Source: Phoronis australis (taxonomy: Eukaryota > Animalia > Phoronida). From it: 64,000 nt of DNA. Positions 10,332 through 46,552 of this stretch are shown piece by piece (positions within the stretch are counted from its first letter, which is position 1; each line of letters opens with the position of its first letter). The notes beneath the pieces are model-generated. The model was not told the DNA's origin. It saw only the letters and a program-made list of their open reading frames with translations, and did no database searches. The DNA is taken from the NCBI GenBank assembly GCA_002633005.1, contig NMRA01000828.1:66450-130449 (forward strand), in the 5' to 3' direction. The translations under genes were made by a program, and so were the position numbers.

Positions 10332-10378
10332 ACAGCAGTGGCAGCAGCAGCGGCGGCAGCAGCAGCAGCAGCAGCAGT
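10332..10378. repeat. (CAG)n microsatellite
   Basis: Imperfect GCA/CAG run seen directly. Confidence 0.85.
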
Positions 10379-16313: not shown

Positions 16314-16398
16314 CATGAAACGACACCTCGTGACAAACCAACCCATGAAACGACCTCGTGACAAACCAACGCATGAAACATCTCGTGACAAACCAACT
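16314..16398. repeat. Short tandem repeat, about 28-bp unit x3 (CATGAAACGACCTCGTGACAAACCAAC)
   Basis: Seen directly. Confidence 0.8.
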
Positions 16399-21606: not shown

Positions 21607-21677
21607 CTCGCTGGTTCCCTGCGTGCTTAGCCCAGCCAGCTACCGCCCCATCTAGCGGCACGCAGGGAACCAGCGAG
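21607..21677. mobile_element. 71-bp mini-MITE with a 10-bp target-site duplication
   Basis: CTCGCTGGTTCCCTGCGTGC...GCACGCAGGGAACCAGCGAG is a 20-bp perfect inverted repeat, flanked on both sides by GGACGCTACA. Confidence 0.8.
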
Positions 21678-21704
21678 GGACGCTACACTACATGTATAAC
21701 TGAC

Positions 21705-22372: not shown

Positions 22373-22373
22373 N

Positions 22374-22494
22374 AACTTGTTCCAAAATACTTAAGTTTTC
22401 GCCAAAAACTTAAGTTTTCGGGAATGAAAACTTAAGTTTTTCAGACCAAAAACTTAAGTTTTTCGATGAAAACTTAAGTTCATTTTTGTAAGGG
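22374..22494. mobile_element. End of a non-autonomous DNA transposon (CMC/EnSpm-like terminus) with palindromic AAAACTTAAGTTTT subterminal repeats, inserted in a UGT exon
   Basis: Five ACTTAAGT palindromes ending in CATTTTTGTAAGGG (reverse complement CCCTTACAAAAATG), directly abutting exon sequence. Confidence 0.65.
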
Positions 22495-22976
22495 ATGGAA
22501 GGGATGTTTCCCAAAACACCCTGGATTACTAATTTACAAAAATATAAGGAATTGTAATAGACCAGGTCGAATTTCATTCGCTTCAGTCTGTCATGAATGT
22601 TAGTAGAGTTCGCAAAAGACTGGCAAATCTTCTTAGAAGTATCCAACATCGCCATCAGACCCTGCAGAGGATTACTTGTCAAATTCCAGAGAGGATACCT
22701 GCCGGCGTTGGACGACAGGCCTTCCGGTCTCGGGACTATAATCAGTTTGATGCCGGCTGCGGTGACGAATTTTGGTGGCTCGTAACCACTGTCGACCAGA
22801 ATGTAAACTTCGTGACCATGCTCAGCCATCATGGTCAAAAATTTCTCGTCGTTTCGCAGAGCTGAGTTCTTAATCGCCGTCAGTGGACACCCGAGGATCT
22901 TAGCTGACTCTCCCCTGTGGTTGCAGGCGTCGAATACAAACAGTAGCCACACTGGCAGTTCCGTTAAGCAACGCAT
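22495..22976 (-). pseudogene. UGT: Second copy (probably the other allele) of UGT exon C1, 5' part, interrupted by a transposon
   Basis: ATG at 22976 (MRCLTELPVWLLFVF). Near-identical to about 21925-22372, with about 7 substitutions counted by eye. The frame runs into the repeat after GNIPS. Confidence 0.8.
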
Positions 22977-23329
22977 CTTAAATCCGCGATGGTACGTTGA
23001 CCCAGTCACAATATAATGTGTACGGCAGACAACTAGCTGTAATTTGCACCGTGAAAACAGCCAGTATACGCACATATGTAGGTCAAACAGATTCGCTTGG
23101 AAAAACTCGTATTTCATCGAAAAAAACTAAATTTAGATTTAGATCACTGGTCCTCGGCCATTCCTTCCTCAAATTAGAAGTGTCTTTGTGTCATGTAAGA
23201 AGTGAGAGTTTCTTTAATTTTTCCTCCAAACCATGCTCAGCGAATAAAATAAATTGCCGTGTTAATTTGTTCATTTCGCAAAAACTCTGCGAGGCAAGTG
23301 GGCGTCAGCGAAGTGTTTGAACTATCGCT

Positions 23330-23550
23330 GGCCAAAATTTGGGCGAACGTTGCGCACCCGTTAAATTACTTGCGTAAATTAACTTTAATAAATAAATAAT
23401 TAATTTACACCGTAAAGAATTAATTTGCATCGTAAAGAATTAATTTACAACGTTAAAAGTAAATTTACACCTTGCAAAATAATCAATTTACGTCGCGAAT
23501 AATTAATTCACGCCGTTAATTATCGTTGGCCATATGGGTGAACGTTAGTG
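23330..23550. repeat. AATTAATTTAC-rich repeat element; related copy at about 44790-45060
   Basis: Repeated TAATTTACA/C units bounded by GGCCA..TGGGYGAACGTT motifs at both loci. Confidence 0.55.
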
Positions 23551-24347
23551 TACAAAATATCGAGAAATAAGGACCCAAAGAAACGTCCCTTAGGAGTAAC
23601 AGCCTTTCGGAGTAAGTTGAGAAGTCCTTCAGAGTAAAGACCTAGACCCCTGAAGTGGCGGCACCGGGTTTTCTCACTACATACAGTTGGCACTTGGCAC
23701 TCCTGAGTTAAAGTGGACTCACTACTGGTAGAAAACAAATTTGAGGTGTGGTGACAGTTTTGAGGTATGCATTTTGAATATGCTGTGGGTCGGAAAAGTC
23801 TGCTAGTTCACCAGAAGACTTCAGTTTTAAAAAATGGCAGCTTCCTATAGTAGTATTCCATCACGCATAGTGGACAGTGACAGCCTTCGCTGCGAGTTCA
23901 GGTTAACCCTCAAACAACACAGAACAGCACAAATGTGATTGGATCAAAACTTTTGGACCACATTAATTGTGGAATATATAGTAAATTTACACTCGGGATC
24001 TAGTGTTCGCTCGTGTGGTAGTTGGGCTGAAAGTGTGTCCCCATTGCTGCCGCTTTGGATTATGACGAGTTGATTAAGACTCTTCGCCATGCATTACATC
24101 TATTTTACCAGCTGCGAACAGTGTTACACTATAATTCTTCTCACGAGCTAAAATGAGTTGTTAATGAGGACTATGTGTTTCGACGGAAAGGAGACGAACT
24201 TCTGAAACCTAGTAAACTGTGGCCTATGTTAGCTGTGACGCCTGGTATCATTGGAGGGTCACTAAAATCTCAATATACTCATATATACTGTACATGTAGG
24301 TCTGTCCCTGAAAAACCGCAATCAACAAGTGGATCCTTTGCACTAAC

Positions 24348-25030
24348 CCGTTTTGGTTCAACGCCGTGTTTTCTCGCCAACTGGTGGTTGTCCCCAATGC
24401 ACCTTATTCCAAATACACATATAAACGAGGTCATCAAGAAATTCATGCTCCGCTCCAAAAATGACATTTGATAACTATTCATGGAGAGGTACGAGAACGG
24501 GAGAGGTAGCTGTCGATCTTCCAAGCTTCTGAGCGCAAAGGCGGATCTACAGGGGGGCGGGGGGTATTCAAGGAGTTCAACCCCCCCTCAGGACAGGATC
24601 AAAAATAAAAATTGAAAAAAAAAACACAAAAACCTTCCTTCCGCTCGGCGCGTCGGATTCGTTCGAATCCTAACCCCCCTTACTGAAAATGTAGATCTGC
24701 CGGCACTGGAGCGTGTCCCTAGGAAAAAAAACTCCACTGAAGCGACGTCACTCAAGACAACTGAAAAAATAAATGTCGACCACAGACATTATTGTAGTAA
24801 AAGCATTGTCTGTTATATTACGAAGTGGAAACCTTGTTCGTTTGCTGGTAGTCCCTTCGGTCTGGGAGTAACGCTCAGTTTAATCCCGCCTTTTGTGACG
24901 AATTTTGGAGGTTCATAACTGCTGTCGGCTAGAACGATAACATCGTGACCTTGAACCGTTATCATTGCCAACTTATCGAATGTTTCGGTGGAAATCGTGC
25001 AGTCACCGTCAGTCATAGCCAAGATGTCGC
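24348..25030 (-). pseudogene. UGT: Degenerate UGT first exon (C2), a paralog of exon C3
   Basis: Fragments GHDVIVLADSSYEPPKFVTK and DRQLPLPFSYL...MSFLERSMN...HGVEPKR, with deletions, frameshifts and a MITE insertion. The downstream intron start is nearly identical to that of C3. Confidence 0.9.
24536..24708. mobile_element. MITE (CAGTGGCGGATC family) inserted in the UGT pseudo-exon, 5-bp TSD GAGCG
   Basis: GAGCG|CAAAGGCGGATCTAC...GTAGATCTGCCGGCACTG|GAGCG. The uninterrupted paralog has a single GAACG at this site. Confidence 0.8.
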
Positions 25031-25656
25031 AAGAAGCCACATTGAGTTATGCAGCCTTTCTGTGTCAAGGTTTTGTCCTTTGGTTTATTACGCAAAATTA
25101 ATATTTCCCAAGAAAAAAAAAACAAGTCAGTAGCCGCCCCCAAACCTGCATTAGCTCCTATCCCACTGAGGGACTGGCTCTGTATAACTGAAGAGCTGAC
25201 GACAGCTGAAGGTCATCCCATCTGGTTGGAAAAACGAATTAGGCCTACTCCTCTCGGGAAGCATTTTACTCGCAAAAACGTACAGAGTTTTCATTATTTC
25301 ACCTCGGTGACGGAAATCCATGCGTTTATAGTTGGAAAAATACCTCCGTAAAATACAACATTGGGAATTTAGTTAAATAAGTATTTACGATGACTGATTC
25401 ATTGGGACCTATTCTGAACTTTCATTGGATAGCCTCTGTTATAAAAATTTTCAGGGCGAGAGATGGTTTGCAACCCCTGTGACAGAATGAAGTTCACGTT
25501 ATTTGAAATGTTATTTTAAGTTCTTGCATTTTTTAGAAAACTCATAAAAGGCGTTGTTTTTTCTAGACTATCACAAGTTTGTGACACACAGCAATTTGAT
25601 CATAGCGTGCAGTTTTCTAATCTAATTCATTTTCAGTCGAAAAAGAGCAATACTGT

Positions 25657-26056
25657 TGCTGTGCGTAAACTTGGAATCCTGGTTAATCTCAAGATCGCGT
25701 ATGCGTGAACTTGGAATTGAATCCTCATTAATTTTGAGAATTTTTTGTTCAGCGTAAAGAACTTTTGTAATTATTGGCCTCATTATCACCCATCTTCTCC
25801 TTTAGCGTAACTTGAGTCAAAGAATATCAGAAAATGTTTGTTTAATCAATTATTGTTTGCGGTGGATAAGATCGCCCACAATTGAAAAAGGATTGGATAA
25901 AATTTACGTTATTTTGTCAACATATTATTCGATTTAGTGCAATGCAAATTTTTATCAAGGTGAACGTGATTATTTGAGTGAAGTTGTCGTGTATTCCAAG
26001 TTCACGCATACGCGATCTTGAGATTAAGCAATATTCCAAGTTCACGCACAGCACTG
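25657..26056. mobile_element. MITE with roughly 60-bp terminal inverted repeats; another end of this family at about 45083-45150
   Basis: TGCTGTGCGTAAACTTGGAATCCTGGTTAATCTCAAGATCGCGTATGCGTGAACTTGGAAT and its inverse at about 25994-26053. Confidence 0.75.
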
Positions 26057-26207
26057 TCACCTCGGAGGGGTACAGCGACAAACCAATACTGATGCGAAGC
26101 GTCACCTAGTGAGCATGAATAACAATAACTTCAATGTACCCATGAAAATGAAGAACCCGGTCTGTCCCTGAAAAACCGCAATCAACAAGTGGATCTTTTG
26201 CACTAAC

Positions 26208-26921
26208 CTGTTTTGGTTCAATCCCGTGTTTTCTCGCCAACTGGCGGTGGTCATAATGCATCTTATTCCAAACACCATACATAAAAGAAGTCATCAAGAA
26301 ATTCACAGTTCGCTCCAAAAATGACATTTCCTGTCCTACATGATAAAGATTGATGGGGAGGTATGAGAACGGGAGAGGTAGCTGCCGATCTTGCAAGCGT
26401 CTGAACGTATCAAAAGGAAAATATTCCACTGAAGGGACGTCTCCAACAACAGCCTGGATCACTATTTTACACACAAATGCTGCGTTGTAGTAGATCATGT
26501 CAAATTTCTCACGCCTCAGTCTATCATGAACCTCTGACGAATTCGCAAACGCTTCGCATATCTTTAAAGGAATGTCAACCACAGACATCATAGTTTGAAA
26601 TCCATTGTCCGTCATATTACGAAGTGGAAACCTGTGCTCGTTTGCTGGTAGTCCCTTCGGTCTGGGAGTAACGATCAGTTTAATCCCGGCTTTTGTGACT
26701 AATTTTGGAGGTTCATAACCGCTGTCGGCTAGAATGAAAACATCGTGACCTTGACCCGCCATCATTGCCAACATCTTCTCGTCATTTCGCAGCGCCGAGT
26801 TCTTAATCGCCGTTAAAGGACATCCCAAGATCTTTGCTGCTTCCACATCAAAACTGGTTGCATACCACACAAAGAGTAACAAGCCAATTGTACCCCGGAG
26901 ACACGTGGTTGAAACAGCCAT
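26208..26921 (-). CDS. UGT: UGT unit C, intact first exon variant C3 (238 codons; no private exon 2)
   Basis: ATG at 26921 (MAVSTTCLRGTIGLLLFVW signal), AAKILGCP, GHDVFIL, MSFLERTVN. Phase-0 donor AAACAG|GTTAGT at 26208. Confidence 0.9.
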
Positions 26922-27552
26922 GGTTGTGAACACACTGTGAAGTGTGAGCTAAGCGACAGTATACACACACCTGCACTTTGCCCTTTCTGTGTTGTGTCTA
27001 CAGGGTGAATCAAAAACGCCAAGCTTAGGTAACGGCGGCGGTACTGTAGAAACATGTCACCTTTAGAAAATGACTCCGTTTTACAGATTTCCAGTGGCTA
27101 ATTCAGTGGGATACTCTAAATGAAAAATACACCGTTTGAAAAAAACAGGTAGCTGGTGTAACATACCGGATTTCGATAAAAATTCATATGAAATCGGAAC
27201 TTCAGAAATTAGCCAAGATCGAACTCGTAAGATTTTATTCGCAGTAACGGAAACGCCGATTAGAACAACAGGGGGGGCAATATTACAATCGAACACGCCT
27301 CGGTGGAAAATCACGCAAATTAGTCATCCTCAGTTGGTCAGCATTGCTAAGTTCTCACCTGGCGGGCCATGCAAAGAGCGCTTTCAGCATGCAATGTCTG
27401 GGTCGACCCCTATGGTCACAAATATGGACAGACTGATCATCAGTAAGATACAATCCGATTGCGACATACAGCTTTGTTTTATGCAAACATTAGTGGTGTT
27501 AAGTTTCCAAATAAAAGTTACTAACCAAGAGAGTATTAGGAGATATACCATG

Positions 27553-30193: not shown

Positions 30194-32181
30194 TTAAGAC
30201 TCGAACGCGTGTACTGGCAGCTGTAATACAGGGGTCATCAAGTGCAAACTAGGTCAGTTAATCGTATGCAGCAAAACCAAAGAAGCCATGCACATGAAAC
30301 TGAACTAGTAGACGGGCAGCCGTCTTACCTCTTGATCAGGTCGCCTAAGACAGCTGAACACAAGTAATGTACCCCTTCTGGAGGATCATCTATGATATGC
30401 ACCCATCCGAGTGGCCACAAGGGGAGTAAGGCCAAATCTATCTGAATTCAGGTACGTGTCGGCCTTTCTATTATACAAACTTTATATACCAAATTTCACG
30501 GAGACTCTGTCAGGACTTACTTGTACCGGTACGTACAAGTTGACGCACATAAAAAGATATTGTCGTTAGGGGACGCCACAGTAGTCGGCCATGCTTTCAA
30601 TGGTCCTCAAAAGGAACACTAGTCGGTGCCGATCGAAAATTCATGGATATTTTTCGTCGACAAAATTTGTAGATATTGAGGCAGACATCACTGAAAACTC
30701 CCACTAGAGGGCTCCACTAATTGAAAAGTTAATAGCCTCCGTCTTTGAATTTTTAAAATCGATGCATATCATAAGCGAAATTGTCAATAGATTTTTTCAG
30801 CATACGTGACAGATTTCTGTACTCAAACTGCCTCTGGTCATGAGCCTCAAAAAACCATCGATGCATGCACCGGCACTCGATTTTCTGGATGACGGCACAA
30901 CCATGTAACAAACATAATGTTTTATTACAGTGAGTGTTGAGGATACGAATAACAGATAGGTTTAAAGGCCTGTGGGTCCAGGCAGGATTGGATAACAAGG
31001 CATTTCTAAACTTTCACTGCTTGGTGTTCGGCAATCTATCACTTTCTGCTAATGTCAGAAATCAATTATTGTCCTGACCGGAAGATGTGAACCCAGTTTG
31101 TCAGAGTTGATCTGGTGATTTTGCCATTTTCAATCCAAAGTCATGAGTCAGAGGAAATTCCCTTTTAAGCAACCATGGAACTTACAGAGAAACTATCAAC
31201 ACTTCCAGCATCAAAGCCGAGACTCAAATTGTATTATACTAGCCCCTAAAGCCACAATATTTCTGTGTAAATGTCAGGCAATAGAACAGAGACTACATAC
31301 CATCCTGTGCAAAACAAATGTTTATAACCACGGTAACAGTAACAATTGCAAGTTAACCACAACTGCCTCCTAACCACAACAATAACGTCTACATACTTAT
31401 GCAACAAAAACATTATAAATAGCTTCCAAAATTCCGTCATCTTGAACATTGAAAAGTAGGCATTTCCTAAAACAATGGAGGAAAATTCCTGATTTCAATA
31501 AATGATGCACTTTGACCATCAGAACTGAGACTTAATGACGTCTTAAAAGTTGTTTGTTGAAATGAACAAAAACCTCTCAATTTCAACTGTTTTGGCTCCC
31601 ATTGCCTGATAATGAAATTATCCAATTAAATAGACCAGTAAATGAACCTACTGAGAACTGCATGGACTACGACTTCCAAATTTCAAAATGACTATTATAA
31701 ATATCAACAAAAAGTTTCACGACACAGTGATTTTTCGTAAATCTACCCATTACCAATAAGGAATGTAGGAAAAAGCCCTTGACACTCTGACAGTTTTGAA
31801 GTTATGGATACCATACTAACAAGTAATCTGTCTCATAGTTATCAAGACAGTAAACATATTACCAGTTCTGAACTAGGTGAACAATCTCCATCAAGTCTAT
31901 GAGCATCCTAAGTTAGGTCTAGAACCATCTCATCTAATAATAAATTAAAGAGAACGAGATGGCCAGTACAGTAAGGTACAATACATCAAAACATGGTATG
32001 GTACAGTATAGCATGTGACAAAAAATCTGAATATATTGCTGAATCCAAATCGAAAAATAGATAATAGATTCAGAACCACACCCATCACAACTTAAAAGCA
32101 TATCAGATCTGCTTTGAGGTAAGTAAAAACTATACAAACAGCAACACAATGAACTAACCCGCCTCCCCACCATCAGCATTG

Positions 32182-32333
32182 CTAAAGCAAACAATGAAGA
32201 AGAAGAAATGAAATAAGTATAAGATGTAACGCCAGACTGTTATAGCTTTGTTGCCTGGTACCACCGCACACACTCAGCTGATCAGCTTCTCCGGCTTGAC
32301 TAGGGGTGTCTCTACCTGTACCTTTACGAGGTC
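32182..32333 (-). CDS. Tandem avidin, last exon: spacer + GPI-signal-like hydrophobic tail
   Basis: TTGTTGTAG| phase 1; GPRKGTGRDTPSQAGEADQLSVCGGTRQQSYNSLALHLILISFLLLHCLL-stop. Confidence 0.8.
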
Positions 32334-35300
32334 CTACAACAATAAGACAAATTCACATTAAAAATCTTTCAGAAATGCAAAGACAATTCTACTAACACAC
32401 AAACGCATGTGATTCCTTATACCTAACTTCCATATTCTACTGACGTTTAGATGTGAGTGTTTGTTAGTGTGGATGTGCATTTGAGCATGTCTGTGACTCA
32501 AGTTTAGAGATGTTAGCCGAACCAGGGTTTTCCCTAAACTTTTCATTGCAATTTTGTCTTCTCAAGTATAGTGACTAAGCTATATTTTCTAAACAGCTCC
32601 CTGGCTGAAACACTACAGCTTTTGTCAAAAAGCCAATTCGGAACCTACTCTAGTTTTTTATTTTGAAGGTCAAATTTTTGTGAATAGGTATCAGATGTTT
32701 CAAAGACTGACAGTTTATCAGTAACAAGTCACTTGGAATAACACCATGAAAGGGTTGCATCTTCTATAGTATGTGGCCATGACACAAGGGAGGTAAATTC
32801 AACCCAGTTTTATTTGAGTTAGTGACAACAAAACAGACCAAACGCCGACGGAATAGGTCATGAACAAATTTACAAAAAAAATTTAACATTTTTTTCCTAA
32901 TCAGTCAAACCGAGTGGCAACGGACCTGGTTCATAATGTTTGCTCGTTCAAATTACATTTCTCAAGTTCCAATCAATTTGAAATGGTAACCGTGAACTTC
33001 GATTACAACAAGCATTTTAAGAAATATCTCAGGAGGGTTACTTTGTTACGATACAGTCTGGCAACACATATTCCGCCACTCACCAGCCTTCTGTTCCTGC
33101 CTGGTGAACGTATTTTTGCCAAAGATGGTAGACTTCCAGTTGTCATCGCAACTAGCCACACCAGTTCTCAGGATCCACGTCGTCTCAATCGTAGGCTCAC
33201 CACCTTTATGACACACATGGCACTGTCCTGAAAACGTAATGAGACGTAGGTTAAGCTCAATTTATTCAGTGAAAGGGAATTTTGCATTCCCAATTTTAGA
33301 GGTGGCCAACCGTAATAAACTGTGGGTTTTCTAGAGTCGCAGATGGTTTCAATGTAAATGAAAATCAAGACCTACCATGGTAAGGAATATTATGAAACTG
33401 ATTTTATGAGCTTAAGTGGTTTCAGTTTTTGTCTTTGGCGGCTAAATGCTGAGAAAATTCAGTTATACCTAAACGTGAATGTACATGGAATAGACACCTT
33501 GGCTCACAGATATTTTGTGTCTGACCAAGTACAAACTACCCTCTGCTGGTGATGGAGAAAATCAGACCATTCCTTTAACCTACAGTTGACAAAAGAAAAA
33601 AGTTCCATAGAACCGCACTATGCCTGTGTTGACTGTCAACATACAAGAGTGATAATTATAAGCACAAGTCTTCAGATTAAGAATTATAACCTGATATGGC
33701 AAAAAATCATTGCAACTAAGTTTTTTAATTAACAATTAACTATCTTAATAATTTCATTTTGGCAAAGACAGCAATAATCTACAAGACTTCAATAAGATCC
33801 ACAACAAATCAAAGTTGCTCTTTGGAGAATGTAAACACTTTTTAGTCCTATATTGCCATAGGATAGGACGAGACAATTTGCAGCAAGAAGGCAAGGTGAC
33901 TGGATCTTTAAAAAAACAGGCATATGCTCAACAACTCTTCAGCGGTGCTACAAATTTGAATGTTGCTTAAACCAGCCATGCACCTATCTTCTGTTACAAA
34001 TTAACTGTGGATGATATGGCTCAAAAGATGTTAATTCTATGACCAAACATTAGATGTAGACACTTGACAAAATGTAGGTCGAATGGCGAGCTCAAACCCA
34101 ACTTATCAAACTAATAGTGAGATCAAACCCAACTTATCAAACCAATGGTGAGATCAAACCCAACTTATCAAACCAATGGTGAGTTCAAACCCAACTTAAC
34201 AAACTGCCAGTTCTGCCCAAGTCTGGAACAACTTCTCTTCTGAGTACATATCAAAAAGAGAGTAAGTTTACGTGAGAAAGTGTTAGAAATATCAATGAGA
34301 CAGAAGGTGGTGCCACCTACCTACAAATCCTGTGATGGAGGATCCATTCTTCCACACAACAAGCAACGTTAACGTCGCATTCGCCCCTTGCACCCTCCTG
34401 AAACCAAACACTTGAGAATGCGTTGTCCCAGCGCTGCCTCTAGTTCTTTCCACACCAGTGCGATACTCCCCTAGAACAGCAAACGACAGTAAAATGAAAA
34501 CAATACCAGGAGTTTGACTATGGCCACTGGATGTAAGCAAACTGGATACTCACAAGTTCATTGTTGAAATTAACAGAGCACCAAATGACATTCAGCTGAT
34601 TAAGGTAGCTCACTTCCAAATTCTCTAAATTTCCATATTTGCATGTCACACACTCACTTCAATATTAGATAGACAGGACCTGTTTCTTTGTGAACGTTTA
34701 TCACTCGACTGGCAAAACAAATGCTACTCTATATGGTATGCTGGTGTTTTTACTATAGGCTTTGAACTTGTACTTTTTGAAAGTGGCAATGTCTTCATTC
34801 TGAACCATCATTACAGACATGTATTTCCAATGTTGTAATTTAGAATATAAATCAAAGTGGTTTACCTTTAATCTCACCAGAGGACTCTTGAGTTAGAATG
34901 ATTTCTGACCCCACATCGTTGTACCAAGCACCACTGATGTCAGAACATTTGGTGATTACCTCTGCAGGAAATGAACTTTAAACGTGTACAAGAATAACGA
35001 GAATACAATCATATCAAAGCAAGAGAGAGGGGAGAAGGGGGGAGGGAGGGAGGGTGAGAGAGAGAGCAATTTCAAAGCTGCTATCCACCTGCATTCTGCC
35101 AAAGCATATTAATTACTTGATTTAGACTAATACCAACAAAACTGGCTTCAGTGTTCATTACTCTGATCAGAGGTTATTTCTAGGTTTGAGGCTATGCAAA
35201 GAGGCACATCAAGTCAACTTAATCACCCAGATTTCGAGCACTGAAGATCTGTCAGTTCATTTCCAAGCCAGGAAATAGGTTTTGAACACGGACCAATTGG

Positions 35301-38300
35301 GTTCCAATTTTATCATGGCAAGAGGTCAAATCAAAAGCTACCTTTTGACAGAAGGTCGCTCAGAGCAATTTTGTACTGAAAACGTAGGTCATAAAAATTG
35401 TACTGCATGATGTTAGAATTGAAATGAAAACGCAAGTCATAAACCTTTTACTGCACGATGTCAGTTTTGAAGTGAAAACGCAAGTCATAAAACTTTTAAC
35501 GGATTCCTTTTCAAAGCGGATATAAACCCATACTTTCAGTAAAAAAATGCAAATTTTGATTAAGACCACTTACCATTATGAAATTAGTCTCAAATTGTTC
35601 CTAGTCATAAATAGATGAGACTTCCAGGCTTGACAATAATAGACAATTCATCATGTCTACAGGCCAAACTCACACATTTTCAGTTCACATCACAGCTTCA
35701 ACTGAAATATTCTGAGCTTGCTATGAAGAATGACAGGTCTTCCCAAACCCAGAGACCACTTCTCAACTGAGTAAGGAACAAGAACAACCCACTGAGGTAT
35801 AAGCTGATAAGTGGCCCAACTCAGAACTTGGATTTTTGACAAAACAAAGGTTTAATGTTGCTTGATGGCCTATAAAATATAGGTACAGTTGTGCTGTATT
35901 ACGAGAATTTAAGCCAAATATATGAATACTGCACCTTTTGAATCCTGGGGACGATTTTTGCTACGGTCTTCCACACTCTGAAAAATAAAACAATTTTCAA
36001 GACAATCAACTATTGAGTGAATTAATGACAAGAAAATTGCAGTCTGCAAAGTCAATTCATAATTTAGAGAGCTCTACACAGATTAACACAAAAAGAAAGG
36101 TATATTGATAGCAATACAATGGGAGTCAATTACAAGGTATATTGATAGCAAAACAATGGAGTCAATTACAAGGTATATTGATAGCAAAACAATGGAGTCA
36201 ATTACACGACTAAATTTCATTCTGGGATATAAATGTTAAAGGTGAGCGCTGTAACAGTTTATGTTTTGAGCATCTTTTCTTTTTTTTACAAAGATAATTA
36301 AAACAAAGTGTTATGACAAACAGCGCATAACCTTAGCTGCCTAACAGTTTCATGCGAGTCCAATCCCATATTGATGAGATATGAAATTCTGAAGCCATAT
36401 TTTGACATTTTGACTCCTACAAAACATTACCCTCAGCATGCTGTTAGTGTTTTCATAGAACTGTGCATTTGTTAAAACAGTTTTCAATTGATGAGTAGAT
36501 TAGTTAAGCATTATGAAAACTATCCTACTTGAATAACTAATTCATAATCATCAAAGGTCGTGTTTTCCATCAAACAGAATGTTCAGTGATTGAAGGTGAG
36601 CGCTCACAGTAAGTACACAACCAGCTAATAAACTCGCACAGTCACATGGTTGTTGAGTTAACAAACTCTGTACAGGGTATTCAAATTGCTCTAAACTCTG
36701 TTCATTTATTTCAAAATCTGCTAATAGCATTAAACAATATGAAGTACCAATTTAACTAATGAGTGTGTTTGTGTGTAGTTTCATACTTTCATTACGTAGT
36801 TGACAAAACAAAGCATATACCAGAATCCTGTCCAAGTATTTTTGTGGCAACCCTATTACCTACCACAAAATTAATGGTATAAGGTATGTTGTTTTCTGTC
36901 TCCAAGGCGACTGTCTCTTCCTCAGTGGGTTTCCGTCGCGTGAATATGTCCTGGCCAATCATGGTCGACTTCCACTTGTCGCGACATGTGTTTGCCGAGT
37001 ACCTCATAAGCCATGACATGACCAGCTGCTCCTCACCATCACACACATGACATTGACCTTGACACAGATATAAATAATTACCTTAATCAGTTACATCTTT
37101 GTTTGGCCTTGACACAGATAGAAATAATTACCTTAATCAGTTACATCTTTGTTTGGCCTTGACACAGATATAAATAATTACCTTAATCAGTTACATCTTT
37201 GTTTGGCCTTGACACAGATATAAATAATTACCTTAATCAGTTACATCTTTGTTTGGCCTTGACACAGATATAAATAATTACCTTAATCAGTTACATCTTT
37301 GTTTGGCCAAAGTACGATTAGAAAACAGACAATCATCAGCATAATATACAGTAGTCTTATGAATAGACAAAACGTTGAGTTAATATGAACTTTTTTATTT
37401 GTGCGGCGATTGTCCGTTTTCTAATACCTTGATCAGGTAGCTCAACCAACCCATTGAAGTATGCCAAATTAATGAAGTTGTTATTAGGAACTCGGTCACC
37501 TAACTGTGTAAGCTGTACTGAATATCCTTAAGGTTAACTTAATATGCAGAACCATAGAAAATTGGCCAAACTTGACTAACCTCAAAACATCTTATCTCAC
37601 AAATGACTGATCGGACTCCTATGAAACTTTCACCCTGTTTTATGCCGCACTATTCTTCAAAACAATGAAAGGAGTTGTTTTTAAAGTGCTCCATTTTTGC
37701 GAGCTGTGAAAAATAGGACATTTAATGAATAAAATTTTGTGAATATGTTACCGATACCGTTGTTTTGCTAAGGATGTACCTTTTGTTTTTGCTCATTTTA
37801 CTAAAAAGACATGGTCATGTGACCCAATTCATAGCAAAATGGTACAAAGCCAAATTCCACAGGCTTTCTACTATGAGGAAATATATTTCTACTGAGTTAC
37901 AACGTATAGTAGATGATTTGCTAAGTGGATCGACACGTCCATAAGGTGATGCATAACCTTCAACCCAACTTGCCACAAGCACCTCTAGACAAACATCAGG
38001 CTCCAATTTATCAAGTGTTTTCCTAAACAATTGAGATGCACTGTTATGTAATGGCTTATCAGACCCATGTGCACTGAAATTATTTCTACTTGATTTCCAT
38101 GACTGCTAATAGCCAATCGAAATAAACCTAATCTGTAATTTGTGGAAAGTGGAGCCAGATCCTGGATAGAATTTAGTGACAATAGCAGCAGTACCGAGAG
38201 CGTAATTATAATTAGGATTGAAAGAAAACAAAATCAACAATTAAAATTCATTTTGATGACAAACAACTCATCTGATGGTGAACAATAATCTTAGAAATAC

Positions 38301-41300
38301 TAGTACTCATATGGCACTCAATAACAATCGTGGAAAGACAAAAATAAAAAAACAATTTCAACGTAAGCCAAAAACTATTAACGAATAATTCAAAAGCTAT
38401 CAACTACTGACAAGTTATAACATGAGCACCAAGGTGAGGGGTAGGACAGCCAGTCAAGCACGTGTCTAGGAACATCAACTTTCAATGAAATTTTCAGATT
38501 TGCACACAATCAAAAGGCGATTTCCTCAAACTTCAAATTCTGTAGAGCAATTTTATGAAAATTGGTTGTATATTTCTGAGCCTCAAGGGTCTGAATTGAT
38601 TGGCACCAGTTTTGAGTAACTACAACAAAAACAGTAAATCTTTCAACTACTTGCTACACACACAGTATGGCGCATGCGTAAATATTTTGTCTAGTGACCA
38701 ACTTCAAAGTACTAAAGATAAAACATCTATGAGTTTCCATGACAACAACACTGTAATCAGTGAAAACAATAAGTGACAACTTATTTTATTTGTGATTTGA
38801 TTTTTTGGCACGTCGCAAAGCGAACTCAAAGCACTGAACCAGTGCTAACAAAAAATTCAAAAAAGGCGAATAAGAATTTTACACCATCATGAGTTTTAAT
38901 TGATGAAAATGAATCGGAAAAATAATAACAGAATTCCCATGTCACCAACCCTGTTTGTAACACCCTGTTTGTAACACCCTGTGTGAAGGTCCCATACCAG
39001 TAGATGAGCAGTCATCCATCTTAATCCCCTGAACACATACTACGATCATCGGAACCAGCAAATTTTACCTGTCCAGGTTTTTGTTACTGCGCCGTTTCTA
39101 AATGACACGCTGAATCCGAACACATCACCTGCCTTGGCATAGGGCATGTAACCTGAAACAACATAACATCATGCTGATGGAATATTGAAGGAAAAAGCTC
39201 CAAGAATAGCACCAGCCAACTTTGAAACGTAATTATGGTAATTCCATACTACAAAGCTATTACACTTGTAGCATGAAAAGAAACAAGTGGCGAGCAGCAT
39301 TTCATGTAGTTCCCCACATTTGAAAATCAAAAAGCGGACAAATGAATCTAGACCATTTCATATATGAAAATTATCAGCTGCATCACCTAAAAACACTGCG
39401 CATCAAGAATTAAAGATTAGGCTAATAAATATAAAAATGTAAAAAAACAGTCAAACTTAATTTTTTTGTGCATCCACCTGCCTCAATTGACAGAATTTTT
39501 AGTTATGCCTGGAATTGGTAAATCATATCGAAAAGCATAAAAATACACTATAATGTGTCAAATTCACCACATTTTAAAACGCCGGATATTTCTATGGTGT
39601 AGCCAGATGCGGGACAAGGCCTTAAGATGGTGGACCATTCTGCCAAAAGAGGGAGGGTTGGCAAGCGCAAGCACACATTCCATGAAAACACTAAATGCCG
39701 AGAAACACGAAATATAATTTTCAAGCAGACAGGAGTAAAAATGGAGACTGAATACCTACTCAATTCCCATATTATTAACTTTAATTTGATGGCGCTGCGT
39801 TAAAATATCGAAACTGCATCTTCTTAACACAGATTCCGCTGGAACTATCAGTAGCTGTAGTGTACACCTCAGTCATCTTTATCATTTCAATCAAAGCAAA
39901 AAGAGATTACAATTACCAGCTAATCTGTTTATAGTGACTTGTTGACATGGCTACAAGCATTAAAGGTGCAATATACCCGGGCCTTCTGTACAGGGCTCGA
40001 CATAACGAGCTGCAGGTCGCATTTGCGACCTGAAATTTGGTAATGCGAGCTGAGATTTTTGTCAAATCGCAAAATGCGACCTGGAATTTCCAACGAATGC
40101 GAGCTGAGTTTTTACACTTCTCAACAGATACCTGGCAAATACAAAGCAGCTCTTGTTAATCCGACCGTTATTTGGTTGTTGCCAATTCCAAGTTCAAAAG
40201 AACACTAACCGAGAACAGCCCTTCTGAGGACTTGTAAGCAAGTCGCGTGAACGTGGGATATGCAGAATCGATCTTTGACGCGTGTCATTGGCTAACACTT
40301 TCGGCCACTTTTGTAAATTCCCGGATTCGCCGAAGAAAGTTTCGGGCCACTGCTTTACACGTGATAAAACTTCACAAAATAACGGTGTTTCTATTAATTC
40401 TTAAGCGATAAACTTACCAAACTTTGTGGTGGACAAAAATATTTATTTTTCACAGAAGATGTCCTTATTACATGTACCAAATATCCACGACAATATCCCT
40501 GATATCGCACTGCGGCACCGTTAACGCGCACGCAGTCCCGGCAGACAATCGTGACTTAGACTGAGATGTGCTTCTCCTTTTTATCGTATTAAGACAGCCA
40601 AAGTGAAAATGACAACCTTATTAATCGCCAAACGACGGTCACGTCTTTACTTTCAGTTGCCAAGAAATTCTCAAACCCTTTACTTGTTTCTGGGGCTACG
40701 TGCGCGAAATATGATTTGTCTTTCACACGTTGTTGCCATCGTAAAGTGTAGGCCTACTCCAGCGATTCAAGTGTGTGAACTCACGCGTGCACCACTTCAA
40801 AGAACAGCGACAGTTCTAAATGAAAGAGTATACCGTCTTGGCTCTGGTTTATTTGAAATTGAACTCAGATTCCAAGCCGTTATAAAAGACCCGATGTCCC
40901 CGGGACCGATATAACCCAGAACTGAAGTTTTCCTGTTTTAGTACGATGTTTCCCGAGGTCGGTGTTCTGTAAACCCTGTATTCTATGCCCGTAGCCAGCT
41001 ATTGCAAATTGCAACTTAACTAGCAGTAGATGCGAAATTGTGGTTGAAGTTATTGAACATTTCATTCTTCTCTTTATACACCCCCCCCCGGCAACTTTTC
41101 GCTCCCCGAACCACCGTCGCCGTAAAATGTTCAGACTCCTATAGAAACAACCTTGTTCCGGCTGAAGCGGGCAGTTAAAAACAAAATCATTCCGGGTGGC
41201 TAAAAAGGGTACAATGTAGGTGGTAACGATATCCAGAAAGTCACCCCTACTAGATGGAGTTTGCCTCGCAAAATCGTATTATTATAACGTTTCTTACCAT

Positions 41301-44287
41301 TACAGCGTTTTAATATCTTATTACCGCAAACACTGAGGTTAACGACTATGCTCACGCACAAGCCTACTCCCTACCTTTAAAGTGTTTCATAATAAGCGCT
41401 CACTGATCTACATGTATTAAAAGTCTCCCCTTAAATTTTGAGAATTTCCAATTATGCGCCCACACTTCAAGCTAGCGCCCATCATAGCGCACTACAAACG
41501 ACCGCGTGTGGTTTAAAATTGACACGCAGCTTATATGGTGTGTCACTTTCATTTTACACAACTTGAGTTTTCAAAAACGTCTTTTCACAATATGTAAAAA
41601 CCAAATCCCAGCTTTGTTTTATACCTTGGAAAGAAAGTTAACACTAGTGACATGCGTGTCGTTTTGTGAATGACCTATTTTTTCCGTACTTGGAAGGTAT
41701 TGAAGAGCAAACTCGCCATTACCCAAGTTAGTTTGAATCTTTAACGACTTTGAGGACAGCCAGTAGCAGGCCAGATCTTACAAAATCCCGGATACTTTTT
41801 CAACGGGCATTTTCTCCCTTTTCACATCGCAAATTTAGCTACTCGAATGCACAAGTCAGTTAGAGAGCACTGATTCAACTTTCACGTCGGCAACTTTAAT
41901 GCCTTGCGCTCTAGAGTCTTTCAATGGCGGTTGTGAAGAACAGTAAGGCCATACCTGCATGAATGAAGTCAATTTTGAGATCCGAAATTTGTGAGTATTT
42001 AACAATGCAGGTAAGAGCATAATCTAAACATTTTCTCGATGATCTAAAAAATCTATTTTGGCACGTAAAAATGGCGGGAAAATTTTGCGACCTGGCATTT
42101 ACTAATGCGAGCTGGATTTTGAAAATGCGACCTGGGATTTTGGCTAGGTCGCAAAATGCGACCTGGCGATTTTAATAGCGTCGAGCCCTGCTGTAAGAAA
42201 CAACTTTTGATTTAGGCAACCTATAATTACAAAATCAGACTAGTTTGTACGTAGGACTCCACAAAAATGCCTAAATTCAATTGACTTCGGAACATTAAAC
42301 ATTAGGTTATAAGCGGACTGTACCGTGTAGTACTGAGTGACTCATCCCCCCTGTGACACCAATGGCACGTTCCAAGTCACTGTGATACTCTCCATAGAGA
42401 AAACCACCGTCCAATCTCATCAAAATAACCTCTTCTCCAAGCTCATTGTACCAGGAGCCTGCAATGGACTTGCACTTTGAACCTGCAACAATTAAAGTCA
42501 AGCAATAACCAATCCTGAATATTCCAAACAAGAATGATTCCCAAATGCAATTCGGAAGCGTTCACTTATTAAGTCATCACTCGAGGGTAGAAAAGATGAC
42601 AATTAATGATAATGGGAAGGTAGTTAGACTTATGGTGAAGTAAACGTACTAATAGTGAAGTCTATTGTGGTTTAGAATATCTCCATCATAGCTTAGTACA
42701 TACCATTAGGACAAAATACATTACTGTAATAAAATTTGCATTTTCTGTAACGTGAACTACATTCATTTGAAGACTGTCTGTTGGTGTGTAATGCTTATGC
42801 ATCCATCAGCAGTATATGAATGTAAGTTTTGATAACCATAACCCTGTCCTACATTCAACAAGATTAGGAAGACTTCCGATGCAAACACTGTAGTTATGTT
42901 CATATATTTAGCCACAGTGCGTAGAGCAAATTGTTTTAACTCGATGTTTCGTATAACTGTGCTTGTATACTATGTTCGTTATTGTACTTTGGGCCTCTGG
43001 CCTAAAATGCAAATAAAGTGTGGTATGGTGGGACACTTCTGCTGCTGACAACAATATCCAACCACCACATAACACATTCGAATTATTACCTGAACTGATT
43101 GTATTGTTTGTAATGAAAATAAAGAATGACCATTTGATTGCTGAAATTCATTACAGAATACAACAGCAGCAAATGCAACTTACAATTACATAAGAATCAT
43201 AAAAACGGAATATACAATGAGCTGTAGTTTCTTCCAAATACAAAGGAGGTTAACTGTGATGACGTAATTAGAGACTGGAAAGGGGATTATATCATGACGG
43301 GTAATGACAGTCTGGGGGGAAGTTATATCATGATGACGGGTGATGACAGTCTGGGGGAGGGTGTAAATAGTGGAAACACTTGGATGACATATGTGAACTT
43401 TATAGAAATGTCTAATCTGGTCTACTGTTAACTGTTCCAGGTAATGTTTTCTCCAACATCACACTCAGAGTTACACTACCTACCGGTATTTTCCATAGTC
43501 AAGCCCATGATGATGTATTTGAAAAATGGAAAGTTTGAGGTGTTTTAGTGACACCAAATAAACGTTTCATCAGGTGAGCTTATCTACGGAAAACCCTGCT
43601 TACAATCTATCACCCTTCAAGGAGTAATAAAATCATTGCCGATGTGATAATTGCTCAGCCCAAATATACAAAAGAAGTTAATTGCAGTGATATTCCTGAC
43701 CAAATATGAGCCTGTGCCCTTTGGACTCACCTGATGATTTCAGGTGTACCTTTATTCAAAAAGTTGTACCCAGCAAAAACTTAGTGTAATCAGTGTGACA
43801 ACATATGAAACAGAAACCCTCAAGCGCAATCAAAATATGAACTACGTCATGTTTTACGCGACTGGCTGTAAGCTGACTAGAACCTTGCAGTTTTGGAAGA
43901 GTGTTAATTTTAAAAGATGTGCCTGGGGGCACACTGCTGCAATACACTTGCCTATTCCTTTTTGACGCACTGGCGCAAAGTCGCAGTCCAAGAATATCCC
44001 AGTAATTGGCAGTTCATGGTGCTTGATTGTATCAGTGGACAAAGTAATCATAAAGGAACGCAGAAGAAATCGACACAATGTAGCCAAACAGTTTGCAAAC
44101 TACACTTATTTTGTTTGTAAGAAAAAAGCTGAGCATAAGATATTTATCTGACACAACGGAAAATTATGAACGATGTCAGTATGTCTTTTATGAAACGCTA
44201 AAACATACCTTCAACAGAGGACAGAACAAAGCAGGAGATATACACCAAGATTGAAGACAATTTCAGCCACACCTCCACCTCAGCCAT
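32182..44287 (-). CDS. Whole gene span: tandem (two-domain) avidin-like protein with signal peptide and GPI-anchor-like tail; 9 coding exons, 366 aa
   Basis: Exons 44287-44209, 42482-42324, 39152-39069, 37057-36864, 35977-35935, 34961-34866, 34470-34321, 33227-33084 and 32333-32182 join through GT-AG introns into one 1101-nt open frame with two avidin repeats. Confidence 0.88.
33084..33227 (-). CDS. Tandem avidin exon: domain 2, C-terminal part
   Basis: GQCHVCHKGGEPTIETTWILRTGVASCDDNWKSTIFGKNTFTR; TTTTCAG acceptor, G|GTGAGT donor. Confidence 0.92.
34088..34204. repeat. 31-bp minisatellite x about 3.7 (intronic)
   Basis: GAGATCAAACCCAACTTATCAAACCAATGGT units. Confidence 0.85.
34321..34470 (-). 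CDS. Tandem avidin exon: domain 2, middle part
   Basis: GEYRTGVERTRGSAGTTHSQVFG...LTLLVVWKNGSSITGFVG; phase 1-1, 150 nt. Confidence 0.9.
34866..34961 (-). CDS. Tandem avidin exon: domain 2, N-terminal part
   Basis: EVITKCSDISGAWYNDVGSEIILTQESSGEIKG; phase 1-1, 96 nt. Confidence 0.92.
35935..35977 (-). CDS. Tandem avidin inter-domain linker exon
   Basis: TTTTATTTTTCAG|SVEDRSKNRPQDSK|GTGCAG. This 43-nt phase 0-1 exon bridges the flanking exon phases. Confidence 0.7.
36097..36206. repeat. About 36-bp tandem repeat x3 (intronic)
   Basis: AAGGTATATTGATAGCAAAACAATGGAGTCAATTAC units. Confidence 0.85.
36864..37057 (-). CDS. Tandem avidin exon: domain 1 C-terminal part + start of linker
   Basis: GQCHVCDGEEQLVMSWLMRYSANTCRDKWKSTMIGQDIFTR...; donor GTG|GTAGGT. 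Confidence 0.9.
37057..37308. repeat. 50-bp tandem repeat x5, overlapping a splice acceptor
   Basis: GACACAGATA recurs at 37061, 37111, 37161, 37211 and 37261. Confidence 0.95.
39069..39152 (-). CDS. Tandem avidin exon: domain 1, middle part
   Basis: GYMPYAKAGDVFGFSVSFRNGAVTKTWTG (compare avidin FGFTVNW...TVFTG); phase 1-1, 84 nt. Confidence 0.9.
39991..42190. mobile_element. 2.2-kb non-autonomous DNA transposon in an avidin intron (CAGGGCTCGAC termini)
   Basis: CTGTA|CAGGGCTCGAC...GTCGAGCCCTG|CTGTA, with TGCGACCTG/TGCGAGCTG subterminal repeats at both ends. Confidence 0.8.
42324..42482 (-). CDS. Tandem avidin exon: domain 1, N-terminal part
   Basis: GSKCKSIAGSWYNELGEEVIL...GFLYGEYHS; TTGTTGCAG acceptor; phase 1-1, 159 nt. 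Confidence 0.92.
44209..44287 (-). CDS. Tandem avidin signal-peptide exon
   Basis: GCCATGG Kozak context; MAEVEVWLKLSSILVYISCFVLSSVEG; phase-1 donor G|GTATGT. An acceptor at 44307 implies a further 5' non-coding exon. Confidence 0.8.
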
Positions 44288-46552
44288 GGCCACACCTGAT
44301 CTTAGCCTGTCAGAAACACAATCAAGTGTAAGTGACTGGGCCCTTGAAAGGCAGAACAGATGGTCAATACAGCAAATCCTGGATGAGAGTCATGCTTCGA
44401 TTACGTTCTCAAGCAATTTAGATGTAAGTGCTCAGGAATAATACTCATTAGATTACATTAGGACATTCTTTAAAAGCAGACAATAAAGGCACTGCATGTT
44501 TTTAGTACCAAGTATCTTCAAGCAAGGATATACCTTAACCGAAACAGGGTAGTCGCTCCTATTTTTACCACGCCCACCGCAGTGTTATAAATGACCAGTT
44601 GCTGATTTGGGCAACTGAACGAAAGATTGCTGAAAGAAAAGTTTGATTACTGGAGTATTTGTTTGAGTTGGAAGGTCAAACATCGACGACCTCCTAAGTC
44701 GTCCCTCTATGCGTACTTATAATTAAATGACTGATATTTTCATCAGATATAATTCACCGAAAAGCTTCCGGCATATGAAGCTCGTTTCATTGGCCAAATG
44801 GATGAATGTTAGGCATGTAAATTATGTGCGCAAGTTATTATTGTTGTTAGAGGTGCAAAGTAATAATGTGGCGTAAAGTAATTAATTTACACATCTTTAC
44901 GCTGCAAACGCCATTAAAATTTACTTTACGCGGCAAATAATTATTTTACGAAGCAAATAATTACTTTACAACACCTCTAAAAAACTACCATACGCCTCAA
45001 ACAATTATTAACTTTGGCATCTAATTTACATGAGTAACGCTCACCCATTTGCCTAGCCATGCAATGATATTGACAGGAGCTTCACTGCTGTGCGTGAACT
45101 TGGAATCCTGCTTAATCTCAAGATTGAGTATGCGTGAACTTGGAATTGAATATTCTTTAAGGAAAGGAGAAATTTTTGTTCAGTGAAAATATTTTTGTAC
45201 TTAATTTAGGGTGAGCAAACCCAAATACAAATTTCATCAGAAACACTTGAAAATAGTGTTAAATGATAGCTTTAGACATGCCGTTTATACAACTTTTTGA
45301 ATTTTTCAAATCGGTTCGAGTTATTTGAATTTTAGAGCCTCAGAAATGGCCTTTTTTTCAGCAAACGGCACCCAGAAATTTCAGGCCACAGAAAATGGCA
45401 AGTTTAGACAACTATATTTGGGAATCCATAGCTCACAGTGTTCTTTAAACAAGATGGAGAGTCCTTTGCAAGTAGGTTAACAACATGGCATAGACACCAA
45501 ACCACAAATTATTACATTTTGCACGAACAAGAACAACAAAAATTAAAAAATTCACCATCGCCTTAGTTTTTTTCGACTTGTGACAGGACATTTTTGCCCT
45601 TGAAGCTAAGTTGAACAAGTGATGTTTTAAAAAGAGAGCAACTTATTACCTTGAAAATGACAAAACACTTCAAGAATTACTATGGTTTAGTGAACATGTT
45701 TCTTTTGCGCCAAAAGATTTTGAAATAACTCTAAAAAATGAAATTTGCATAGCAAATGAATTCAAAATGAGCAAAAACCAGAAAACTAGTCTTTTTTAGA
45801 GTATTTCGTTATTCATTTAAAAACCTATGAGGTTATGTAAATTAACCTTTTTTCCCAAGTAAGATCAATGTTTTCACAATCTTAAGTTGCACTCCAAATG
45901 ACAAAAAATGATAATATGCATTTTTAATTAAACAAAATTAAATTGGACCCTACAATTTCAACAAATTTTAAATCAATTTCATTCCTATCAAATAATATAG
46001 AAACTGAGAGGTATTGTGTTGGTGACTATCCAAAAAGAGCATATTTGTATACTAAAATGTTTTGATGCACTGCAGCGGTGACTGAACATTTATTTTCGTG
46101 AAATATGTAATTTTTTAAAAATGAAACTGATCACAGCGCCCCCACGAGGTAGTAAAAGTGTAACAGAAAATATTTTTGAAGAAAATAGAAAAAAATGACT
46201 CTATCCCCAAAATTGAAGTAAATTAAATTTCAAAAGTATTCTATATTATTTTAATGAAAATATTTTACCAGGTTTGGGCCACTTTTTGTAATTTAGAGAA
46301 GTTTTGACTGGTTCTGTTGAATACATTTGACCAATCAGGTTCGAGTTTAGTTTGAACCCTGCAAAGGTCAACATGGTTCTTGAAAAATGACTGAAGTTAC
46401 CTTTTTAGAAGTGTTCCTAAATGGAAATGGTGAGATAAAGTGAAAAAATTTGATCAGGAATGGATTAGGACATGATAAGTGATTATGACATTGAGTGTAC
46501 ACTTTCAGGATTTTTCCAGGTGAGAGAGTGGCGAGGCAGTAAATTAAAAAAN

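Follow-up and report, generated by a model that had tools for sequence, protein, structure and literature searches.

The 64,000-nucleotide stretch of Phoronis australis DNA analyzed here (contig NMRA01000828.1, positions 66,450 to 130,449; hereafter the window) carries on its minus strand, from position 44287 down to 32182, a gene for a protein with two avidin domains and a C-terminus that has the layout of a glycosylphosphatidylinositol (GPI) attachment signal. An earlier note, written from the letters of the window, had proposed nine exons with consistent phases for this gene and a natural, probably GPI-anchored, two-domain avidin as its product. The nine exons are joined by RNA evidence at GT-AG borders, and they lie in AT-rich, intron-rich surroundings of eukaryotic character, with a G+C content of 35-42% over the bins of 32182-44287. 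The features of the gene, each with the evidence on which it was placed, are as follows.

44288..44312, minus strand: 5' untranslated region (UTR) part of exon 1 (RNA reads)
44209..44287, minus strand: coding part of exon 1, with the ATG at 44287 and a signal-like hydrophobic segment (residues 10-25), ending in phase 1 at a GTATGT donor (joint 42480|44207)
42324..42482, minus strand: exon 2, start of avidin domain 1, Pfam profile positions 2-49, with N12, L14 and Y33 (Pfam and RNA)
39069..39152, minus strand: exon 3, middle of avidin domain 1, profile positions 44-79, with the divergent residues W70F, S75V and T77K (Pfam and RNA)
36864..37057, minus strand: exon 4, end of avidin domain 1, profile positions 77-116, with W97 and W110, and the start of the linker, ending in phase 0 (Pfam and RNA)
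35935..35977, minus strand: exon 5, a 43-nucleotide micro-exon for 14 linker residues that restores phase 1 (joints 34961|35935 and 35977|36864 in all four RNA runs)
34866..34961, minus strand: exon 6, start of avidin domain 2, profile positions 2-28, with N12 and S16 (Pfam and RNA)
34321..34470, minus strand: exon 7, middle of avidin domain 2, profile positions 25-80, with Y33, T35, V37, W70, S75, T77 and F79, and two N-x-S/T sites (Pfam and RNA)
33084..33227, minus strand: exon 8, end of avidin domain 2, profile positions 74-116, with W97, L99, W110 and N118 (Pfam and RNA)
32182..32333, minus strand: coding part of exon 9, with the stalk (GPRK..T.TP), the residues S-V-C-G-G, an 8-residue polar spacer, a 17-residue hydrophobic end and the TAG stop (RNA and homologue tails)
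31000..32181, minus strand: 3' UTR, the lower end of which is approximate, stranded depth falling below 1 below ~31000 (RNA depth)
39866..42349, no strand assigned: high-copy repeat in intron 2, non-coding and transcribed from both strands (RNA and X1 depth)

RNA reads of four runs were placed on positions 30500-45500. These were X7, X8 and X9, which are raw-read RNA sequencing runs with the same species label as the window, and X5, a small-share run that gave a contig of 1779 nucleotides. The junction check suggested in the earlier note was run, and all eight joints (32332|33083, 33226|34320, 34469|34865, 34961|35935, 35977|36864, 37055|39067, 39150|42322 and 42480|44207) were found in X5, X7, X8 and X9, including the last of these, which connects exons 1 and 2. 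In the stranded raw-read runs every joint was covered by 13-112 reads per run, and the joint of the tail exon, 32332|33083, by 24-97. The plus-strand ends at all eight joints read CT..AC, that is, GT..AG on the minus strand, and the first mate lay on the plus strand in nearly all reads of the stranded library, the pattern expected of minus-strand RNA. A single X5 contig, the one of 1779 nucleotides, carries all eight joints, from the 3' UTR through to exon 1. After adjustment to the GT-AG borders the coding sequence amounts to 1101 nucleotides and an intact 366-residue frame that opens with the ATG at 44287 and closes with the TAG at 32184-32182, with seven of the eight introns in phase 1 and the intron behind exon 4 in phase 0, so that the proposed nine exons and their consistent phases were borne out. 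DNA contigs of the source organism (X1) span the exons with 0-2 differences per listed piece.

Other models of the locus were tried and rejected. An eight-exon version, with exon 4 joined directly to exon 6, was ruled out by the RNA-supported 43-nucleotide exon at 35977-35935, the omission of which would disrupt the reading frame. Two separate single-domain genes were rejected because one transcript contig covers both domains. An assembly artefact was likewise rejected: domains 1 and 2 are only ~39-42% identical, which argues for an old duplication instead. A tblastn search of the 64-kb window with the final model returned no further avidin copy.

Since no joint that bypasses the tail exon was found above the listing threshold in the RNA runs on 30500-45500, and read depth was 0 in the bin 32504-33004, inside the last intron, the tail exon looks constitutive in the sampled RNA. 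The earlier note had singled out transcripts lacking exon 32333-32182, or not joining the two domains, as the observation that would speak against it, and none was listed.

The 5' end of the gene is more complex than a single exon border. Reads of X5 and X8 diverge from the assembly above 44312 with a common loose end, the X8 consensus of which holds stop codons when read in frame with the ATG, and four X9 reads join 44305|44533. Positions 44288-44533 contain either an upstream non-coding exon or a stretch in which individuals differ from the assembly. At the intron-2 repeat (39866-42349) the summed X1 contig depth is ~1e5, versus ~45-60 in single-copy bins. DNA of a second organism (X6, 80% likeness) matches only this repeat and simple repeats, and no avidin exons.

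Six minus-strand open reading frame pieces matched Pfam Avidin (PF01382) and tiled its 116-position profile twice, over positions 2-49, 44-79 and 77-116 in domain 1 and over 2-28, 25-80 and 74-116 in domain 2. Four of the six pieces individually exceeded the 24-bit cut-off, and no family besides Avidin was significant on the exon pieces in Pfam, among them no EGF, CUB or other adhesive module. The spliced model scored 103.8 bits for domain 1 and 180.2 bits for domain 2 against a hidden Markov model (HMM) built from the domain 2 sequences of the family. Together with the single contig that spans both, the double tiling upheld the claim of two avidin domains on one transcript. The encoded protein is arranged as follows.

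Residues 1-27: N-terminal segment with a hydrophobic core at 10-25 and small residues that suit cleavage after S24 or G27
Residues 28-148: avidin domain 1
Residues 149-190: linker of 42 residues
Residues 191-311: avidin domain 2
Residues 312-349: polar stalk
Residues 350-366: 17 hydrophobic residues up to the stop, with nothing after them

The linker between the domains was thus as previously proposed, its length being 42 residues rather than about 43, and the proposed polar spacer and hydrophobic tail were confirmed, the tail being 17 residues that run directly into the stop. By a rule check, the N-terminal segment, with a mean Kyte-Doolittle value of up to 2.5 and small -3/-1 residues for cleavage after S24 or G27, resembles a signal peptide; an N-terminal hydrophobic segment scoring >=2.5 was present in 9 of the 12 aligned family members. 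The cysteines comprise the avidin-type pair plus a second pair in each domain, which leaves C339 of the stalk without a partner in the ectodomain. Behind domain 2 the stalk (32258-32333) has the motif GPRK followed by G-T-x-T-P, which occurs in 9 of the 12 aligned members, from three phyla, and in several members also behind domain 1. Possible roles of this motif are those of a protease site, of a contact with the neighboring barrel, or of an intrinsic ligand as in bradavidin.

A GPI attachment signal consists of small residues at the omega and omega+2 positions, a short polar spacer and a hydrophobic stretch that ends at the C-terminus, with no cytoplasmic residues. The C-terminus of the protein has this layout according to a rule check, with C339 (followed by G and G) or G340 (followed by G and T) as candidate omega residues, then a 7-8-residue polar spacer and the hydrophobic end, and we therefore treat the anchor as predicted. 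Among the coding differences listed, at least two alter the tail: His363Tyr, in an X1 DNA contig (the tail codons lie at 32182-32235), and a 3-nucleotide deletion in X5 that drops one tail leucine and keeps the frame. The tail stays hydrophobic in both variants. The other listed ones were synonymous, at Cys295, where the change was present in all RNA reads covering the site and in the X5 contig, and at Tyr347, in an X1 DNA contig.

To place the protein in a family, searches with several kinds of query were carried out. When exon 2 and exon 8 were each used as the query of a word-indexed protein search, no match was obtained, and a metagenome locus scan with the two C-terminal thirds of the domains matched 128 patterns, none of which was confirmed. 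A first profile, made from the same two C-terminal thirds and scored against 1.84 billion representative proteins (1.84e9), yielded 131 matches at E<=1e-3. The ten best of these (297-416 amino acids) all contained two matched stretches and two Pfam Avidin stretches, and the species named in their records were the annelids Owenia fusiformis and Ridgeia piscesae, the cephalopods Argonauta hians and Acanthosepion pharaonis, and the sea anemone Actinia tenebrosa. A second profile, from eleven family members, found 113 proteins at E<=1e-10 and extended the two-domain set to Octopus vulgaris, O. sinensis, O. bimaculoides, Nematostella vectensis, Desmophyllum pertusum, Dendronephthya gigantea and Xenia sp., while Paralvinella palmiformis and Capitella teleta gave shorter or partial matches only. 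The search for homologs of the same architecture that the earlier note had recommended thus led to annelids, cephalopods and cnidarians. The top matches had bit scores of 244-288 and 37-46% identity to the protein, which is about equidistant from the cnidarian and annelid members. Named entries were labelled uncharacterized, hypothetical or unnamed, with the exception of one O. bimaculoides UniRef entry named "Avidin".

The C-termini of 239 stored proteins and of the model from the window were then compared. Thirty-three of them, including the latter, have two near-full avidin domains, and these were sorted by how they end. Twenty-two, again including the model from the window, have a GPI-like end, defined as a hydrophobic stretch that ends within <=10 uncharged residues of the C-terminus; four were flagged as having a transmembrane segment plus a tail, although three of these have merely 1-7 residues after the segment and are borderline; five have no hydrophobic end; and the remaining two (P0196 and P0197) belong to a different architecture of ~535 residues that stops just past the second domain. 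A comparable test on single-domain relatives with a near-full domain found a hydrophobic end in 0 of 60. The C-terminal GPI-signal pattern that the earlier note had described thereby gained support beyond the rule check, its type of tail being conserved across three phyla and absent from the single-domain relatives. In 16 of 26 members a cysteine is found no more than 16 residues ahead of the tail. The two ~535-residue proteins, which are from cephalopods, have their avidin domains at ~160-280 and ~415-535 and lack a tail. One of the five proteins without a hydrophobic end, P0032, is an unrelated protein of 337 residues that lacks a signal segment and consists of streptavidin-like domains in tandem, and tandem streptavidin-like proteins therefore also exist outside the family.

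In trees of the individual domains a branch with SH-aLRT 99 set all 29 domain 2 sequences apart, the 29 domain 1 sequences all formed one group (81), and twenty single-domain outgroups were separate (89); these are quick trees from ~120 columns, in which only the starred branch is strong. The terminal branch of domain 1 from the window measured 1.17, versus a median of 0.31. The simplest reading would be a single internal duplication before the cnidarian-bilaterian divergence, after which domain 1 of this gene changed at a faster pace. Regarding intron positions, a phase 1 intron before a G-Q-C motif is common to both domains, and the other intron differs: in domain 2 it precedes Y33, and in domain 1 it follows the loop 3-4 region. 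This means that introns have been gained, lost or moved since the duplication. Taken as a whole, the gene is expressed and belongs to an ancient and conserved subfamily, hitherto undescribed, of two-domain avidins with a predicted membrane tether.

The biotin pocket was assessed at 14 contact positions (N12, L14, S16, Y33, T35, V37, W70, S75, T77, F/W79, W97, L99, W110 and N/D118), the avidin numbering of which, beyond three mapping anchors, we take to be that of the known avidins. The anchors were the alignment of the C-terminal third of domain 2 to chain residues 77-124 of chicken avidin (1avd), the alignment of the middle of domain 2 to residues 33-75 of zebavidin, and a list of conserved contacts from the zebavidin paper (PMC3811995). 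In domain 2 all 14 positions were canonical or family-typical, and in domain 1 this held for 8 of the 14, N12, L14, Y33, W97 and W110 being retained and six residues being altered (S16E, V37L, W70F, S75V, T77K and L99M). Across the tandem proteins, N12, S16, T35, W70, S75, T77, W97 and W110 of domain 2 were each present in 29 of 29, and domain 1 was fully canonical in 16 of 29, with only one of the 29 more degenerate than domain 1 of this gene. Judged by these residues, domain 2 passes the contact test and domain 1 partly fails it. As such, a pseudo-tetramer of two chains would carry two canonical sites and not four.

Structures were modelled for two homologs that are 43-44% identical to the protein. 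The Owenia protein (alignment depth 11 sequences) gave a mean pLDDT of 71.7 and a pTM of 0.62, and the Dendronephthya protein, which has a GPI-like tail (alignment depth 30 sequences), gave 77.7 and 0.72. Both AlphaFold models consist of two eight-strand barrels with a barrel pLDDT of 80-94; in the Owenia model, in which the blocks were mostly at 78-92, the linker and stalk were of low confidence and a long helix runs across the membrane segment. The best match of both models in the Protein Data Bank by Foldseek was single-chain dimeric streptavidin (scdSav; 6s50 and 6s4q), aligned over both barrels with a target-normalized TM-score of 0.77-0.79. Single avidins fit one barrel at TM-scores of 0.80-0.90, and the circularly permuted dual-chain avidin 2c4i reached only 0.45-0.46. 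Within one chain, the two barrels are thus predicted to pack as a pair of streptavidin subunits does, and the pairing of domains 1 and 2 in the homolog models fits a pseudo-tetramer formed by a dimer of chains, although this packing may partly reflect a memory of solved avidin tetramers in AlphaFold.

In view of these results, we consider it probable that the gene encodes a surface protein with two avidin domains and a predicted GPI anchor that captures biotin mainly via domain 2. The N-terminal segment would be cleaved as a signal peptide on entry into the secretory pathway, and the hydrophobic tail would be removed and replaced by a GPI anchor at C339 or G340, placing the protein on the outer face of the membrane. 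There, domain 2 would bind biotin tightly. Domain 1, with its fold, W97 and W110 retained, would serve mainly as a structural partner of domain 2, to the pocket of which it would probably lend W110. The pair of subunits fused in scdSav is, we presume, the pair that exchanges the lid tryptophan; if so, domain 1 would supply the W110 that completes the domain 2 pocket, which would explain why W110 was retained in a domain with a decayed pocket. Two chains would form an avidin-like pseudo-tetramer with two good sites near the membrane, possibly bridged by the membrane-proximal cysteine. We speculate that captured biotin is then internalized, which would amount to vitamin uptake and would also deny biotin to surface microbes. 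Capture followed by internalization is favored because a tethered binder saturates quickly and is useful only with turnover. The cytoplasmic tail of the Owenia protein contains a Y-x-x-hydrophobic motif of the endocytosis type, which lends weak support, such motifs being common by chance.

Several points weigh against this interpretation. The call of an anchor depends on a simple rule check and on conservation among homologs, and two histidines and a cysteine occur in the tail. In the Owenia protein a real transmembrane helix is followed by a cytoplasmic tail of 38 residues, the only such case of the 33, and four tandem members (P0006, P0010, P0143 and P0144) have no hydrophobic end, some of which may be truncated gene models. 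Domain 1 is degenerate, so stoichiometry derived from avidin does not transfer to the protein, and the structural support comes from homologs that are only 43-44% identical to it. In addition, very tight binding of the avidin type suits withholding of biotin more than its delivery, unless the protein is degraded after uptake.

A different role for the same surface protein would be defense, in which a tethered avidin on an epithelium or on blood cells would withhold biotin from microbes, or would act as a receptor of the pattern-recognition or opsonin type. The fully canonical pocket of domain 2 agrees with very tight binding, and the degenerate, long-branched domain 1 could have gained another ligand. 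There is also precedent among relatives, as one study describes the lancelet proteins Bjavd1 and Bjavd2 as bacteria-induced opsonins and chicken avidin as infection-induced (PMC8033661). Set against this are the small, saturable capacity of a tethered binder, since withholding calls for bulk secretion as in egg white, and a 2026 paper, which reports in its title and abstract that zebrafish avidin is required neither for development nor for resistance to one pathogen, though that is a soluble vertebrate form. We consider a defensive role unlikely.

A separate question is whether the hydrophobic end is a GPI signal at all. It could instead be a single-pass anchor without cytoplasmic residues, or the protein could be clipped, which would free a soluble two-domain avidin. 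The Owenia homolog with its transmembrane helix and the four tandem members that lack a hydrophobic end would suit this explanation, and the GPRK of the stalk, present in 9 of the 12 aligned members, offers basic residues at which a protease could cleave. However, 17 residues that include two histidines would make a short and weak membrane span, and a cluster of small residues, a polar spacer and a terminal hydrophobic stretch, which together are the classic GPI layout, are found in 22-25 of the 33 two-domain proteins, from three phyla. Nor was any transcript without the tail exon listed. These considerations make an end of another kind fairly improbable, and we retain the predicted GPI anchor. 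That the protein is instead a structural or adhesion molecule, in which the avidin domains serve for oligomerization only and bind no biotin, as was proposed for the avidin-like domain of sea-urchin fibropellin, is in our estimation very unlikely, since, even though six contact residues are lost in its domain 1 and avidin domains fused to CUB, EGF or HYR modules occur among the matches (P0116 and P0086), its domain 2 has 14 of 14 contact residues and eight of those positions are invariant in 29 of 29 proteins across the cnidarian-bilaterian span, which is hard to explain without a ligand, and it has no EGF, CUB or other adhesive module. Membership of the fibropellin group itself was rejected on the lack of EGF and CUB modules and because matches of the P0116 type form a separate clade.

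Elsewhere in the window, two further groups of features were apparent.

2359..26948, minus strand: tandem cluster of at least 4 UDP-glucuronosyl/glucosyltransferase (UDPGT) genes
62178..63998, minus strand, open at the end of the window: frame of 606+ residues that contains TNP-like RNase H and GTP-binding insertion domains, as in P-element/THAP9-type transposases

Each UDPGT gene is made up of two large exons, one N-terminal and one C-terminal, the latter ending in a membrane anchor; the Pfam UDPGT match of 2359-3255 has E=2e-93. One N-terminal exon appears to be duplicated beside an assembly N at 22373. The transposase frame at 62178-63998 may be intact or recently active.

Among known systems, the vertebrate avidins (chicken avidin, AVR2, AVR4/5, BBP-A, xenavidin and zebavidin) share their Pfam family with the gene, and the homolog models superpose on them at TM-scores of 0.80-0.90. 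All of the zebavidin contact positions called highly conserved in PMC3811995 are present in domain 2. The vertebrate proteins are single-domain, secreted and soluble homotetramers, whereas the gene encodes two domains per chain, a stalk and a terminal hydrophobic anchor signal, and each of its domains has an extra pair of cysteines, assigned by position as C113-C132 and C274-C295. The abstract of the xenavidin paper calls the function of avidins "not fully understood". The invertebrate lancelet proteins Bjavd1 and Bjavd2, compared by description only, are members of the avidin family with a proposed immune role and are described as soluble opsonins in the study cited above (PMC8033661). Sea-urchin fibropellins and the EGF/CUB/HYR-avidin fusions (P0116 and P0086) are animal extracellular proteins with an avidin-family domain, as is the protein described here, but they carry one avidin domain at the end of long EGF/CUB/HYR arrays and fall in a separate clade, while the gene has no such modules.

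In the two-domain relatives, such as those from Owenia (CAH1779432.1), Ridgeia (KAK2192235.1), Argonauta (GAB1601759.1) and Actinia (XP_031571391.1), the order of parts equals that of the gene: a signal-like N-terminus, domain 1, a linker, domain 2, the GPRK stalk and a hydrophobic end, with the domains of the gene in the respective clades. The cephalopod relatives differ in having longer linkers, and in Owenia the transmembrane helix and cytoplasmic tail replace the GPI-like end. No paper on a natural tandem, GPI-anchored or otherwise membrane-anchored animal avidin was found in the open-access and bioRxiv literature, the matches being engineered constructs or methods. The earlier note had suggested that no characterized GPI-anchored tandem avidin is known, and this held for the literature, whereas the architecture itself proved to be conserved in the databases, almost always as an 'uncharacterized protein'. 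Consistent with this, a 2026 sea anemone paper describes the cnidarian avidin-like proteins as an underexplored family (PMC13514124).

A functional analogy, although one with an unrelated fold and ligand, is provided by the folate receptor. This GPI-anchored protein is a lipid-anchored, high-affinity vitamin binder of the outer leaflet that works by capture and internalization. Pursuing the analogy, one could suppose that GPI-anchored dual-domain avidins are older than the cnidarian-bilaterian split and are the biotin-uptake receptor of marine invertebrates, with capture and internalization like those of the folate receptor, and that animal avidin began as a membrane receptor of which the soluble egg avidins of vertebrates are a later, secreted offshoot. 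We put this forward as a doubtful, if wide-reaching, extension of the preferred interpretation.

In design, the protein is similar to the engineered dual-chain avidin (dcAvd; 2c4i) and to scdSav (6s4q and 6s50), which have two barrels per polypeptide and are intended to assemble two by two into a pseudo-tetramer. A review describes scdSav as two subunits connected by a 26-residue linker, two chains of which assemble and are held by an engineered cysteine bridge, and mentions a 'monovalent' form in which one of the two sites is switched off (PMC7411666); dcAvd is described as made of circular permutants (PMC3105096). With its disabled site and cysteine bridge, 'monovalent' scdSav closely resembles the gene, in which domain 1 is degenerate and a stalk cysteine is unpaired. 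The differences are that dcAvd and scdSav are laboratory constructs, the latter with a linker of 26 residues, whereas the gene is natural, has a linker of 42 residues and encodes a membrane anchor signal. The characterized avidins that we found are all soluble and single-domain, and the known forms with two domains are engineered tools. A natural, expressed two-domain avidin with a predicted tether, of a kind that corals and octopuses share, suggests that the fold has a task at the cell surface, and, with one intact and one degenerate site per chain, the gene gives dual-chain avidin technology a template from nature.

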